In this document: piece by piece, positions 31,041-51,931 of the stretch | Layout: the number at the start of each line of letters is the position of its first letter | Numbering within the stretch: position 1 is the first letter of the stretch | NCBI RefSeq assembly: GCF_003018255.1 | Contig: NZ_CP027440.1 | Strand: one strand, 5' to 3' | DNA from: Escherichia coli | GTDB taxonomy: Bacteria; Pseudomonadota; Gammaproteobacteria; Enterobacterales; Enterobacteriaceae | DNA length: 64,000 nucleotides | Notes under the pieces: model-generated | What the model saw: the letters and a program-made list of their open reading frames with translations, nothing else | What the model was told of the DNA's origin: nothing | The model's database searches: none | Program-made: the position numbers and the translations under genes

Positions 31041-31998
31041 AGCACTACTGAACGCGGGACGTCAGACGTTAATGCTGGAGTTGCAGGAAGCAAGCCGTTT
31101 ACCGGAACGTCTGGGCGATGATTTTGTTCGCGCCGCCAATATCATCCTGCACTGCGAAGGCAAAGTGGTGGTTTCGGGAATTGGCAAATCGGGCCACATT
31201 GGTAAGAAAATCGCCGCAACGCTTGCCAGCACCGGCACTCCTGCCTTTTTTGTCCATCCGGCAGAGGCATTGCACGGCGACCTGGGGATGATCGAAAGCC
31301 GCGATGTGATGCTGTTTATCTCTTACTCCGGTGGCGCGAAGGAACTGGATCTGATTATTCCGCGTCTGGAAGATAAATCTATCGCGCTGCTGGCGATGAC
31401 CGGCAAACCGACGTCACCGCTGGGCCTGGCGGCGAAAGCGGTGCTGGATATCTCCGTAGAACGCGAAGCCTGCCCGATGCACCTTGCGCCGACCTCCAGC
31501 ACCGTCAATACCCTGATGATGGGTGACGCGCTGGCGATGGCGGTCATGCAGGCGCGCGGATTTAATGAAGAAGATTTTGCCCGCTCCCACCCTGCTGGAG
31601 CACTGGGCGCTCGCTTGCTGAATAAAGTGCATCATCTGATGCGCCGTGACGATGCCATCCCGCAGGTGGCGTTAACCGCCAGCGTGATGGACGCGATGCT
31701 GGAACTTAGCCGCACCGGTTTAGGTCTGGTGGCAGTGTGCGATGATCAACGACTGGTGAAAGGCGTCTTTACCGACGGTGATTTACGTCGCTGGCTGGTT
31801 GGCGGCGGCGCACTCACCACGCCAGTCAATGAAGCGATGACGGTCGGCGGCACCACGTTGCAATCGCAAAGCCGTGCCATCGACGCCAAAGAAATCCTGA
31901 TGAAACGCAAAATCACCGCCGCACCGGTAGTGGATGAAAACGGCAAACTCACCGGCGCAATTAACCTGCAGGATTTCTATCAGGCCGGGATTATTTAA
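31033..31998 (+). CDS. gutQ: D-arabinose 5-phosphate isomerase (SIS + tandem CBS domains)
   Basis: 321-aa ORF overlapping srlR stop; recognised as GutQ. Confidence 0.92.
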
Positions 31999-33509
31999 TC
32001 CTTCAGCCCCAGACGTTTCGCCAGCCGATGCAGGTTGGCGACGTCGGTTTCCAGCATCCGCGCACAGGCGGCCCAGTTGTGATGATTTTGCGCCAGTGCC
32101 TGACGAATGGTTTCACGCTGGAACGCTTCTGTCGCTTCACGCAGGTTTTGCTTAACGATAGGCACCGCCGCCGCTTCTGGCGGCGGCAACGTCACCTCAG
32201 GAAAAGCAAAATGTTGCGCCTCAAGAATCACTTCATCGCCGCTGCGAGTGGCTCTCGACAGTACTACCGCCCGATGAATAGCATGTTCCAGTTCGCGCAC
32301 GTTTCCCGGAAAACTGTAGTGTTGCAGTAAATTTCGCGCCCCGGCACTTAATACCACGCGGGAGAGCCCCAGCCGCAAACGACACTGCTCGCAGAAATAC
32401 CCCGCCAGCAGAATGACATCATCGCCCCGCTCACGCAGCGGCGGCACCGAAAGTGGAAACACGCTCAGGCGATGAAACAAATCGGCGCGGAATCGCCCTG
32501 CCAGCACCTCTTCGCGTAAATCGCGGTTAGTCGCCGCCAGCACGCGCACATCGACCCGCAAACTGCGGTCATCGCCAACGCGCTGAATATCGCCATACTG
32601 CAACACCCTCAGCAGCTTGGCCTGCAATGCCAACGACAACTCGCCGATCTCATCGAGAAACAGCGTGCCGTTATCCGCCATTTCAAACTTCCCGCTGCGG
32701 TTACTGATAGCACCAGTAAACGCCCCTTTCACATGCCCGAACAACTCACTTTCCGCCACACTTTCCGGCAGTGCGGCACAGTTGAGATAGACCAGCGGAT
32801 TCACCGCCCGTGGCGAGGCTTCATGAATCGCTTTCGCCACCAGCTCCTTACCGGTTCCCGTCTCACCGCTAATTAAAACGTTGAGATCGGATGCCGCCAC
32901 AATCTCAATCTCTTTTTTCAATTGCGTCATGCCTGGGGACAAACCAATCATCTGCGTCTGTTTCACCGCTTCAAACGGCGCGGCATCGCCTGGCAGCATA
33001 TTCTGGCTTTCCAGTTGTTCAATCAGTAACGCATTACTTAACGCTCCCGCCGCCAGTGCGGCAATCAGCCGTAGCTCTTCGTCGCTGAAAACATCGAACT
33101 GATCGGGCTGCATCCCGTCGAGCGTCAAGGCACCGATCAGGTTTTGCCCGGCAAACAACGGCAAACCAACGCAGGCGTGAACCTTCAGACTCTCCTGCCC
33201 TGGAATCAAACCGTCATAAGGATCGGGCAATTCGCTGTCTGCGGGAAAGCGCACCACATCACCCGCGCGGGCAATCGCTTCCAGCCGTGGATGACCTTCC
33301 AGCGCAAAGCGTCTACCGAGTACATCCTTCGCCAGCCCGTCGATGGCAAGCGGAATAAACTGCCGCGAGTCGTAACGTAGCAACGCAGACGCATCGCACT
33401 CCAGCACCTGACGCAGCGTGGTGATCAGGCGCTGAAAACGATCCTGATGACCAATCCCACGCTGCAATTCGATGGCGATATTCGCCAGCACATCAACGGA
33501 AAAACTCAT
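31995..33509 (-). CDS. norR: sigma-54-dependent NO-responsive transcriptional activator
   Basis: 504-aa ORF with AAA+ Walker A GETGTGKE and GAFTGA sigma-54 contact motif; recognised as NorR. Confidence 0.94.
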
Positions 33510-33521
33510 CTTTGCCTCACT

Positions 33522-33577
33522 GTCAATTTGACTATAGATATTGTCATATCGACCATTTTATTGATAGTCATTTTGAC
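33522..33577. promoter_or_regulatory. three NorR enhancer sites (GT-N7-AC)
   Basis: GTCAATTTGAC (33522-33532), GTCATATCGAC (33543-33553), GTCATTTTGAC (33567-33577) in the norR-norV divergent spacer. Confidence 0.8.
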
Positions 33578-33632
33578 TACTCATTAATGAGCACAATTTT
33601 ATTTATAGAGTAAAAACAATTAGATAAAAAAC

Positions 33633-33648
33633 TGGCACGCAATCTGCA
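33633..33648 (+). promoter_or_regulatory. sigma-54 (-24/-12) promoter of norVW
   Basis: TGGCAC-gcaat-CTGCA about 50 nt upstream of norV ATG. Confidence 0.8.
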
Positions 33649-33695
33649 ATCAGCAAGACATCTTTTTAGAACACGCTGAATAAATTGAGGTTGCT

Positions 33696-35135
33696 ATGTC
33701 TATTGTGGTGAAAAATAACATTCATTGGGTTGGTCAACGTGACTGGGAAGTGCGTGATTTTCACGGTACAGAATATAAAACGCTGCGCGGCAGCAGCTAC
33801 AACAGCTACCTCATCCGCGAAGAAAAAAACGTGCTGATCGACACCGTCGACCATAAATTCAGCCGCGAATTTGTGCAGAACCTGCGTAATGAAATCGATC
33901 TGACGGATATCGATTACATCGTAATTAACCATGCTGAAGAGGACCACGCCGGGGCGCTGACCGAACTGATGGCACAAATTCCCGATACGCCGATCTACTG
34001 TACTGCCAACGCTATCGACTCGATAAATGGTCATCACCATCATCCGGAGTGGAATTTTAATGTGGTGAAAACAGGCGACACGCTGGATATCGGCAACGGC
34101 AAACAGCTCATTTTTGTCGAAACGCCAATGTTGCACTGGCCGGACAGCATGATGACTTACCTGACAGGCGACGCGGTACTGTTCAGTAACGATGCTTTCG
34201 GTCAGCACTACTGCGACGAGCATCTGTTCAACGATGAAGTGGATCAGACGGAGCTTTTCGAGCAGTGCCAGCGTTATTACGCCAATATCCTGACGCCGTT
34301 CAGCCGCCTGGTAACGCCGAAAATTACCGAGATCCTGGGCTTTAACTTACCAGTCGATATGATAGCGACCTCTCACGGCGTGGTATGGCGCGATAACCCG
34401 ACGCAAATTGTCGAGCTGTACCTGAAATGGGCGGCGGATTATCAGGAAGACAGAATCACCATTTTCTACGACACCATGTCGAATAATACCCGCATGATGG
34501 CCGATGCTATAGCCCAGGGTATTGCGGAAACCGACCCACGCGTAGCGGTGAAAATTTTCAACGTCGCCCGAAGCGATAAAAACGAAATCCTGACCAATGT
34601 CTTCCGCTCAAAAGGCGTGCTGGTCGGCACTTCGACGATGAATAACGTGATGATGCCAAAAATCGCCGGGCTGGTGGAGGAGATGACTGGTTTACGCTTT
34701 CGTAACAAACGCGCCAGTGCTTTCGGCTCTCACGGCTGGAGCGGCGGTGCGGTGGATCGTCTTTCCACACGCCTGCAGGATGCGGGTTTCGAAATGTCGC
34801 TTAGCCTGAAAGCCAAATGGCGACCGGACCAGGACGCTCTGGAGCTATGTCGTGAACACGGTCGCGAAATCGCCCGTCAGTGGGCGCTCGCGCCGCTGCC
34901 GCAGAGCACGGTGAATACGGTGGTTAAAGAAGAAACCTCTGCCACCACGACGGCTGACCTCGGCCCACGGATGCAGTGCAGCGTCTGCCAGTGGATTTAC
35001 GATCCGGCAAAAGGCGAGCCAATGCAGGACGTTGCGCCAGGAACGCCGTGGAGTGAAGTTCCGGATAACTTCCTGTGCCCGGAATGCTCCCTTGGCAAAG
35101 ACGTCTTTGACGAACTGGCATCGGAGGCAAAATGA
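33696..35135 (+). CDS. norV: anaerobic nitric oxide reductase flavorubredoxin
   Basis: 479-aa ORF; C-terminal rubredoxin CxxC...CxxC; recognised as NorV. Confidence 0.94.
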
Positions 35136-36265
35136 GCAACGGCATTGTGATCATTGGTTCGGGCTTCGCCGCCCGCCAACTGGTGAAAAATATTCGCAAA
35201 CAGGACGCCTGTATTCCATTAACCCTGATTGCCGCCGACAGCATGGATGAGTACAACAAACCGGACCTCAGCCATGTTATCAGCCAGAGGCAACGTGCCG
35301 ATGACCTTACCCGCCAGACGGCGGGTGAATTTGCCGAGCAGTTTAATCTGCACCTGTTTCCGCACACCTGGGTAACGGATATCGATGCCGAAGCCCATGT
35401 GGTGAAAAGTCAGAATAATCAGTGGCAATACGACAAGTTAGTGCTGGCAACCGGTGCCAGCGCCTTTGTCCCGCCAGTGCCCGGGCGTGAGTTAATGCTG
35501 ACGTTAAATAGTCAGCAAGAGTATCGCGCCTGTGAAACGCAACTGCGGAATGCCCGACGCGTGTTGATTGTTGGCGGTGGCTTGATTGGTAGCGAACTGG
35601 CGATGGATTTTTGTCGTGCAGGCAAAGCGGTCACGCTAATCGACAACGCTGCCAGTATTCTGGCAGCGTTAATGCCACCGGAAGTAAGCAGCCGCTTGCA
35701 GCATCGGTTGACGGAGATGGGCGTTCATCTGCTGTTAAAATCTCAGTTGCAGGGGCTGGAAAAAACGGATTCTGGCATTCTGGCAACGCTGGACCGCCAG
35801 CGCAGCATCGAAGTGGATGCGGTAATTGCCGCCACCGGACTGCGCCCGGAAACCGCCCTGGCACGACGCGCCGGGCTGACGATTAATCGCGGCGTTTGCG
35901 TCGATAGTTATCTGCAAACCAGTAATGCCGATATTTATGCGCTGGGCGATTGCGCGGAAATTAACGGTCAGGTATTGCCGTTCCTCCAGCCGATTCAACT
36001 TAGCGCGATGGTGCTGGCAAAAAATCTTCTCGGCAATAACACGCCGCTGAAACTCCCGGCGATGCTGGTGAAAATCAAAACGCCGGAATTACCGCTGCAT
36101 CTGGCAGGCGAAACCCAGCGTCAGGATTTACGCTGGCAAATTAATACCGAACGCCAGGGAATGGTGGCGCGCGGTGTTGATGATGCCGACCAGCTTCGCG
36201 CCTTTGTGGTCAGTGAGGATCGGATGAAAGAGGCGTTTGGATTGTTGAAAACGTTGCCGGTGTAG
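35132..36265 (+). CDS. norW: NADH:flavorubredoxin reductase
   Basis: 377-aa ORF overlapping norV stop; N-terminal GSGFA FAD motif; recognised as NorW. Confidence 0.93.
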
Positions 36266-36269
36266 GCGA

Positions 36270-36480
<211 letters not shown>

Positions 36481-39421: not shown

Positions 39422-39527
39422 CAAATTCTCCAGCAATGACAGTTAATGCGCCGATACATTCACAAATCATGCCAGTTTTTAATTTACTGTTATTTAAAGA
39501 AATTAAATTCTGTAATGCAGGAAAAAC

Positions 39528-51288: not shown

Positions 51289-51750
51289 TCATGCTGCCGG
51301 GCTTTGTCCCTTTACCAGTTGGCTTAAATTCACCGGCACATTGTTTTCAATGGCGGTGTATAAGCTGTCGTAAACGCCAGCGATTTTTTCGAGATAGTGT
51401 TCCAGAACCTGTTCGCGATCGCGGATGTTGACCTTGCCATCAATCATGCCGTCAATGCTCAGTTGCGCCTGCGCAATCCGCTGTTTGTCTTCACCATCTT
51501 TTGTTTCGACGTAATACTCGATGGTGTGGCTGTTAAAGCCATCCGCCAGGGTGACGTAAATACGAAAATGTTCAAAAAGGACGAAACAGAGTTCTTTGTC
51601 CGGCGCGCAGCTCATGGCGTGATGCAGGCGCGCTTTCGATAACGTGATTCCCTGAACCAGCGAATTGCAGTAGATGTGCCACTGGTCCTGTAGGCGACGA
51701 TGCCGCTGTGCGATGTAATCGGCTTTCTCGCTTATTTCCCAAATAGTCAT
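51289..51750 (-). CDS. hycA: formate hydrogenlyase regulatory protein
   Basis: 153-aa ORF; recognised as HycA. Confidence 0.92.
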   Translation of the reverse strand: MTIWEISEKADYIAQRHRRLQDQWHIYCNSLVQGITLSKARLHHAMSCAPDKELCFVLFEHFRIYVTLADGFNSHTIEYYVETKDGEDKQRIAQAQLSIDGMIDGKVNIRDREQVLEHYLEKIAGVYDSLYTAIENNVPVNLSQLVKGQSPAA

Positions 51751-51786: not shown

Positions 51787-51802
51787 AGCATTTTTTGTGC
51801 CA
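51787..51802 (-). promoter_or_regulatory. sigma-54 promoter of hyc operon
   Basis: Minus-strand TGGCAC-aaaaa-ATGC (GG/GC at canonical -24/-12 spacing) upstream of hycA. Confidence 0.65.
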
Positions 51803-51860
51803 ACTTTTAATTTATTGTTATTAAAGCGATTTTTAAGCTAAAGATGAATTTCGTCGCCGT

Positions 51861-51889
51861 GTCGACGTGTCATTTCGACATCATCGACA
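51861..51889. promoter_or_regulatory. candidate FhlA enhancer motifs in hycA-hypA spacer
   Basis: GTCGACGTGTCATTTCGACATCATCGACA between the divergent sigma-54 promoters. Confidence 0.55.
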
Positions 51890-51915
51890 TTATTCACCGC
51901 AGGGATAATCAACAC

Positions 51916-51931
51916 TGGCACAATTATTGCT
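51916..51931 (+). promoter_or_regulatory. sigma-54 promoter of hyp operon
   Basis: TGGCAC-aatta-TTGCT about 30 nt upstream of hypA ATG. Confidence 0.7.

Follow-up and report, generated by a model that had tools for sequence, protein, structure and literature searches.

The norR–norVW divergent control region in a 64-kb Escherichia coli window: a NorR enhancer and sigma-54 promoter

We identified positions 33510–33695 of a 64-kb window (the whole 64,000-nucleotide stretch of DNA analysed here) as, almost certainly, the E. coli norR–norVW divergent control region, comprising a NorR enhancer and a sigma-54 promoter. Few sigma-54 enhancers are better characterised than that of the norR–norV region, and PnorV/NorR has found wide reuse as a nitric oxide (NO) biosensor. 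This control region is already known, textbook material, and its identification adds no new biology. Its annotation marks the NO-responsive norVW switch in this strain and records both switch and genes as intact. Its practical value is that of a positive control, in which a regulatory architecture was recognised from raw sequence.

Our assignment, which no observation contradicts, draws on identity to characterised DNA, gene identities and conservation; NorR binding, the need for three sites and NO sensing are taken from the literature. NorR binding and NO-, NorR- and RpoN-dependent transcription were described on K-12 DNA, which is identical to the window at every defined element, and would be expected to apply here.

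Identity of the locus and its genes

The interval is exactly the start-codon-to-start-codon spacer between norR and norV (186 bp, 32% G+C; Table 1). The NorR protein matches the NCBIfam equivalog NF003451 with 824.7 bits (cutoff 476) in an alignment spanning residues 2–503. Corresponding scores are 1046.7 bits for NorV (NF003954, cutoff 711) and 683.9 bits for NorW (NF003437, cutoff 392), identifying the target operon norVW as one that encodes an NO-detoxifying enzyme. A sequence-only reading had assigned this interval to divergent norR–norV control, and the exact spacer boundaries together with the NorR, NorV and NorW equivalog scores bear it out.

NorR contains the Pfam domains GAF, Sigma54_activat and AAA_lid_14, and a Pfam search of the protein gave no scoring match to an HTH model. 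A GAFTGA motif is found at residue 262. Residues R75, D96, D99, C113 and D131, reportedly proposed as the iron ligands of NorR by Tucker and colleagues in 2008, are all present. Relative to the K-12 protein, NorR carries seven substitutions (T177A, C316S, Q380L, A418S, T443P, V446A and V451I). Three of these seven are grouped directly ahead of the C-terminal DNA-binding region, and the three DNA sites are unaltered.

The gene order around the spacer, which K-12 and LF82 share, is srlR–gutQ, norR (divergent), norV–norW, and hypF–hydN on the opposite strand. Many E. coli chromosomes, LF82 and NRG 857C among them, match the surrounding 401 bp at 100% identity. Of 5426 complete E. coli genomes, 5425 have this region, annotated norR | norV, and RefSeq names the flanking genes norR, norV and norW in identical E. 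coli genomes. The 66-bp enhancer is found in 5417 of the 5426 genomes with an identity of at least 95%, and the exact enhancer allele of the window in 610. An Rfam scan of 33300–33900 returned no RNA family.

Downstream of the operon, the norW–hypF spacer is longer than in K-12 by a block of about 96 bp (36279–36374), which contains an added copy of the REP-like sequence ATGTCGGATGCG..CGTCTTATCCGACCTAC. This block amounts to a difference in repeat copy number between the two genomes.

Table 1. Features of the norR–norVW locus (positions are those of the window)
Feature	Position	Strand	Sequence	Remarks
norR	31995–33509	−		ORF, 504 aa; NO-sensing sigma-54 enhancer-binding protein with GAF, AAA+ and DNA-binding regions
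NorR site 3	33522–33532		GTCAATTTGAC	Centre about −132 from the predicted start
NorR site 2	33543–33553		GTCATATCGAC	Centre about −111
NorR site 1 (promoter-proximal)	33567–33577		GTCATTTTGAC	Centre about −87
Candidate IHF bend site	33614–33626	+	AAACAATTAGATA	Two mismatches to WATCARNNNNTTR
Sigma-54 promoter norVp	33632–33648	+	CTGGCACGCAATCTGCA	−24 GG at 33634–33635; −12 GC at 33646–33647
Predicted norV start and 37-nt leader	33659–33695	+		GAGG Shine-Dalgarno at 33687–33690
norV	33696–35135	+		ORF, 479 aa, intact; anaerobic NO reductase flavorubredoxin
norW	35132–36265	+		ORF, 377 aa; NADH:flavorubredoxin reductase; 4-nt overlap with the norV stop

Three NorR sites match experimentally characterised DNA

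Three inverted repeats with a GT-N7-AC core are located upstream of the norV promoter, and all three are read in the sequence at the starts first proposed for them (33522, 33543 and 33567). Tucker et al., 2010 (PMC2831303) supply mutagenic primers for sites 1–3, along with a 21-bp NorR1 and a 66-bp NorR123 oligonucleotide that served in binding and ATPase experiments. Together, the published oligonucleotides and primers map to 33510–33586. NorR1 corresponds to 33563–33583 with zero differences. NorR123 corresponds to 33517–33582 apart from one G>T change at 33559, in the DNA separating sites 2 and 1. The Site3, Site2 and Site1 primers map at 33510–33539, 33536–33561 and 33559–33586, respectively. 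Apart from the 33559 SNP, these primers mismatch only where GT>GG and AC>CC were engineered, and the Site3 primer only at its two engineered bases. This mapping indicates that the published site numbers (1, 2, 3) count from the promoter outward.

The window thus agrees with the published NorR sites in sequence and spacing, the comparison by which the sequence-only reading was to be judged; the sole natural difference (33559) falls outside the sites. Two details of that reading need correction. The sites had been described as evenly spaced, and the actual centre-to-centre spacing is 21 bp and then 24 bp. They had also been described as GTCA-N3-TGAC-type, which holds for sites 3 and 1; site 2 ends in CGAC and has the form GTCA-N3-CGAC.

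K-12 norVp (Tucker et al., 2004, 2010; Gardner et al., 2003) is the same locus as that in the window. Both have the three sites, the −24 and −12 elements, the 21/24-bp spacing, 55 nt between site 1 and the promoter, and a spacer of 186 bp. The window differs by the seven NorR amino-acid changes and by five single-base spacer changes (33559, 33590, 33594, 33621 and 33651), none of them in a NorR site or in the −24/−12 elements, so that the defined elements are untouched. The SNP at 33651 sits at about −8.

Published experiments also bear on how these sites are used. When any single one of the three was mutated, norV was no longer activated, the ATPase was no longer stimulated and open complexes no longer formed (Tucker et al., 2010, PMC2831303). 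In the K-12 genome, gSELEX picked out the norR/norVW spacer as NorR's sole strong target, and this work placed both norR and the divergent norVW under NorR regulation.

Motif frequency, chance and other regulators

We considered whether the motifs could be chance palindromes in AT-rich intergenic DNA with no regulatory role, a reading that we regard as vanishingly improbable. The bare GT-N7-AC core is common, with 220 sites in the window, and groups of at least three appear twice, with 1.3 expected, or about once per window. Because such triple clusters are near chance level, GT-N7-AC alone is not discriminating. The stricter GTCA-N3-YGAC motif is found at 11 places, and three of these fall inside 60 bp at the norR–norV spacer only. 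Its over-representation, with eight sites outside the cluster (one in norV) where a first-order Markov model predicts about 2.7 across the full window, would speak for chance as well. This excess elsewhere in the window is probably a codon or composition effect missed by the shuffles. Against chance, none of 150 first-order Markov simulations placed even two such sites within 60 bp of each other. The sites are moreover invariant across genera while the spacers between them diverge, they co-occur with norR homologues at 17 independent loci among the matches listed (see below), and they equal experimentally protected DNA, with footprints and mutagenesis published on identical site sequences.

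The site inside norV is a fourth perfect GTCA-N3-TGAC palindrome (GTCAACGTGAC, 33733–33743), at about +75, which encodes G-Q-R-D. We rejected it as a NorR site. Its GT requires the wobble base of the Gly codon, and that base (the ‘T’) varies, the codon being GGC, GGG or GGA in five of nine enterobacterial orthologues; published protection, in addition, ends at −84. The wobble variation suggests that the palindrome is probably a by-product of the coding sequence.

A second alternative is that the region is chiefly controlled by FNR, NsrR or NarL/NarP binding the same DNA. A NarL-type heptamer (TACTCAT) does occur at 33578–33584 and an FNR-like TTGAT-N4-ATTTT at 33561–33574. However, the FNR match has three mismatches, NsrR matches are at noise level (8/23 mismatched), a 7-mer is expected by chance, and gSELEX and footprints assign the region to NorR. 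FNR, NsrR or NarL could at most modulate expression, and we consider it extremely unlikely that one of these regulators is the main one.

A sigma-54 promoter faces norV

The NorR enhancer is followed by a sigma-54 promoter. The sequence TGGCACGCAATCTGCA is a TGGCAC-N5-CTGCA element at 33633–33648, oriented toward norV, and is read exactly where the sequence-only reading had placed the promoter. It coincides with the motif of OS25, a peak found by sigma-54 ChIP-seq upstream of norV (Bonocora et al., 2015, PMC4591121). The window at 33632–33648 is identical to this 17-mer motif, CTGGCACGCAATCTGCA, and OS25 carries an ‘experimentally confirmed in EcoCyc’ mark in the same study. The proposed NorR enhancer and sigma-54 promoter arrangement for norVW is thus supported by published oligonucleotides, a ChIP-seq motif and gene identities.

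Bonocora et al., 2015 (PMC4591121) predicted the norV start at 19 nt past the motif centre, 37 nt before the ATG; by that rule it lies at 33659. Protection of G residues by NorR was reported from −137 to −84 (Tucker et al., 2010, PMC2831303). The predicted start agrees with this protection, because with +1 at 33659 the two limits coincide with G33522 in site 3 and G33575 in site 1, in each case the outermost G.

Exact matches to TGGCAC-N5-YTGCW number three in the window against 0.16 expected. When one mismatch to TGGCAC-N5-YTGCA is allowed, five matches against 4.1 expected are at chance level.

The window contains other known sigma-54 promoters, those of hydN (39459–39475, minus strand), hycA (51787–51803, minus strand) and hypA (51915–51931, plus strand), all exact matches to published ChIP-seq motifs (Bonocora et al., 2015, PMC4591121). 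Counted with that of norV, they make four sigma-54 promoters in 64 kb. An additional exact TGGCAC-N5-CTGCA element (TGGCACATCTACTGCA, 51666–51681, minus strand) lies within the hycA coding region (51289–51750, minus strand) in sense orientation. In its main text, the ChIP-seq paper (Bonocora et al., 2015, PMC4591121) has no intragenic peak naming hycA.

A candidate IHF site lies between enhancer and promoter

The sequence-only reading captured the NorR sites and the promoter and omitted a candidate IHF site between them. IHF is reported to bind past the NorR sites and ahead of the norV start (Tucker et al., 2010, PMC2831303). We propose 33614–33626 as a candidate IHF bend site, judged from its sequence and conservation. 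The aligned position is a perfect WATCARNNNNTTR in Citrobacter werkmanii, Enterobacter Ag1, E. cloacae and Enterobacter BIGb0383, and the SNP at 33621 lies in the unspecified NNNN part of the candidate motif. An IHF consensus scan gave 105 matches in the window against 77 expected and is not discriminating; within the norR–norV spacer it found just one 1-mismatch match, at 33554–33566. Two IHF sites are reportedly mentioned in a 2004 abstract by Tucker and colleagues.

Proposed mechanism of norVW activation

Three NorR dimers occupy the three sites, and binding to DNA favours formation of a hexameric AAA+ ring (Tucker et al., 2010, PMC2831303; review). Each of the three sites is required for ATPase activity, open-complex formation and induction in vivo, and NO bound at the GAF-domain iron lifts repression of the AAA+ domain so that the sigma-54 closed complex is remodelled (Tucker et al., 2010, PMC2831303; review).

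Applied to the window, NorR dimers centred at about −132, −111 and −87 would form a hexameric AAA+ ring waiting at the promoter, while sigma-54 RNA polymerase would be held as a closed complex at TGGCAC-N5-CTGCA. IHF may bend the AT-rich DNA between enhancer and promoter, as published statements and conservation suggest. Binding of NO to ferrous iron in NorR's GAF domain would lift repression of the ATPase. ATP hydrolysis would then open the promoter, and norVW, encoding flavorubredoxin and its reductase, would be transcribed from about 33659.

Bound NorR would probably also limit norR expression. Site 3 starts 12 bp from the norR ATG, and the sites overlie the norR leader or promoter. Transcripts of norR would thus begin within or beyond the enhancer, where bound NorR could limit them. 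A minus-strand scan for a sigma-70 norR promoter found no convincing match, the best candidates scoring 8/12, and this autoregulatory step is therefore based on geometry and literature statements. The one plus-strand sigma-70 match was rejected, being NorR site DNA and at chance level.

The same geometry could be taken to mean that the palindromes are mainly an operator through which NorR represses norR, with norV activation secondary. The position of site 3, which confines the norR promoter to the enhancer itself or the DNA on its right, fits this view, as does the gSELEX statement that NorR regulates norR as well as norVW. It is nonetheless highly unlikely as the main explanation, since single-site mutants lose norV activation, ATPase stimulation and the open complex (Tucker et al., 2010, PMC2831303) and a norV-facing sigma-54 promoter lies 55 nt from site 1, a conserved distance. 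Autorepression of norR would be an extra role of the same sites, leaving activation of norVW as their main function.

The NorR enhancer resembles that of NtrC at glnAp2 in combining an upstream enhancer, an AAA+ activator and a sigma-54 closed complex. For NtrC, two sites suffice and phosphorylation controls oligomerisation, whereas NorR needs all three sites, is pre-assembled on DNA and has the ATPase as its controlled step (Tucker et al., 2010, PMC2831303). The FhlA-dependent hydN, hycA and hypA promoters are likewise sigma-54 promoters served by a GAF-domain enhancer-binding protein. They differ from norVp in their activator, in their effector (formate) and in their enhancer consensus, CATTTCGTACGAAATG (review).

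In the hycA–hypA spacer (51840–51890), we observed GTCATTTCGAC at 51869–51879, with GAATTTCGTCG and GTCGAC elements nearby. GTCATTTCGAC resembles the FhlA consensus and fits the NorR-type GTCA-N3-YGAC pattern as well.

Enhancer–promoter geometry in other genomes

We scanned species-representative genomes for triplets of GTCA-N4-GAC with 6–20 nt between copies and obtained at least 120 loci; this is a small sample, and since the scan required the motif, the frequency of norV without such sites lies outside its reach. Among the matches listed, 88 are tandem repeats with no relation to NorR control and 32 are non-tandem triple sites. A full-length NorR homologue starts beside the cluster at 17 of these 32 non-tandem sites versus none of the 88 tandem repeats.

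The 17 NorR-adjacent loci among the matches listed come from Enterobacterales (seven), Pseudomonas (eight), Comamonas (one) and Mitsuaria (one). All seven Enterobacterales loci (E. albertii, two Citrobacter and four Enterobacter) have the norR–norV arrangement. At the ten Pseudomonas, Comamonas and Mitsuaria loci, the downstream gene is flavohaemoglobin-like, with a conserved N-terminus and a length of about 393–397 aa. Two of these ten were scored with the flavohaemoglobin (hmp) model NF009805 and gave 566 and 528 bits.

The geometry is notably constant, given the range of gaps that the scan admitted. The span between the outer sites is 55–57 bp in all 18 sequences (the window and the 17 loci), and 56 bp in 16 of them. 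In the Enterobacterales (8/8, including the window), the gaps are 10 and 13 nt, and TGGCAC follows 55 nt past the last site. In Pseudomonas, the gaps are 8 and 15 nt at seven of eight loci and 8 and 14 nt at the other, and TGGCA(C/T) follows 41 nt past the last site at all eight. The corresponding centre spacings are 21/24 bp in Enterobacterales, 19/26 bp in Pseudomonas and Mitsuaria (19/25 bp in one) and 21/25 bp in Comamonas. Across nine aligned enterobacterial spacers, neither TGGCACG nor the GTC/GAC half-sites show any variation, while the sequences between them diverge.

The Pseudomonas norR(fhpR)–hmp(fhp) loci are therefore similar to the window in having three GT-N7-AC repeats over 55–56 bp beside a NorR homologue (about 50% identity), then a TGGCA(C/T) −24 element and then an NO-detoxifying gene. 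They differ in their target, which is a flavohaemoglobin in Pseudomonas and a flavorubredoxin in the window. They also differ in centre spacing (19 and 26 bp, or 19 and 25 bp at one locus, versus 21 and 24 bp), in how far TGGCA lies from the last site (41 versus 55 nt) and in the −12 region, which is CTGAT or similar in Pseudomonas and CTGCA in the window.

These alignments allow the generalisation that enhancer–promoter layout is rigid and specific to each lineage, with the middle site shifting between lineages, although we regard it as rather unlikely to hold. If true, a rigid lineage geometry would constrain models of how the DNA-bound NorR hexamer reaches sigma-54. Lineage-fixed geometry is the sole slightly new material in this analysis, and it may have been published already.

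At the −12 region, norV and hmp promoters of Enterobacter (L037, L060 and L080) and Pseudomonas (L006–L087) read TGGCACG-N4-TTGAT or TGGCACG-N4-CTGAT. The −12 region thus carries GA in place of the consensus GC, with the −24 element and the enhancer distance conserved.

Pseudomonas sp. dw_612 has a second locus (L007, 1716–1772) with a NorR-type triple site, gaps of 10 and 14 nt, and TGGCACG 41 nt later. We found no norR homologue in the surrounding DNA examined, and an 82-aa ORF (MFDFFSNPQNV...) lies downstream. This locus may be an additional NorR target in that genome. Triple sites of a similar kind occur at two further loci (L034 and L065), neither of which has a clear promoter.

Dozens of dispersed short tandem arrays were found in the metagenome-assembled genome (MAG) ‘bacterium H5_UNCL2’ (JABTUV01; L092–L122) and in Prevotellaceae MAGs (L018–L022 and L053–L058). 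Their units are GTCATTTCGACCG or GTCATCTCGAC, with periods of about 17–30 bp, and belong to a repeat family unrelated to NorR. A single 1.28-Mb contig supplies 21 of the tandem-array loci.
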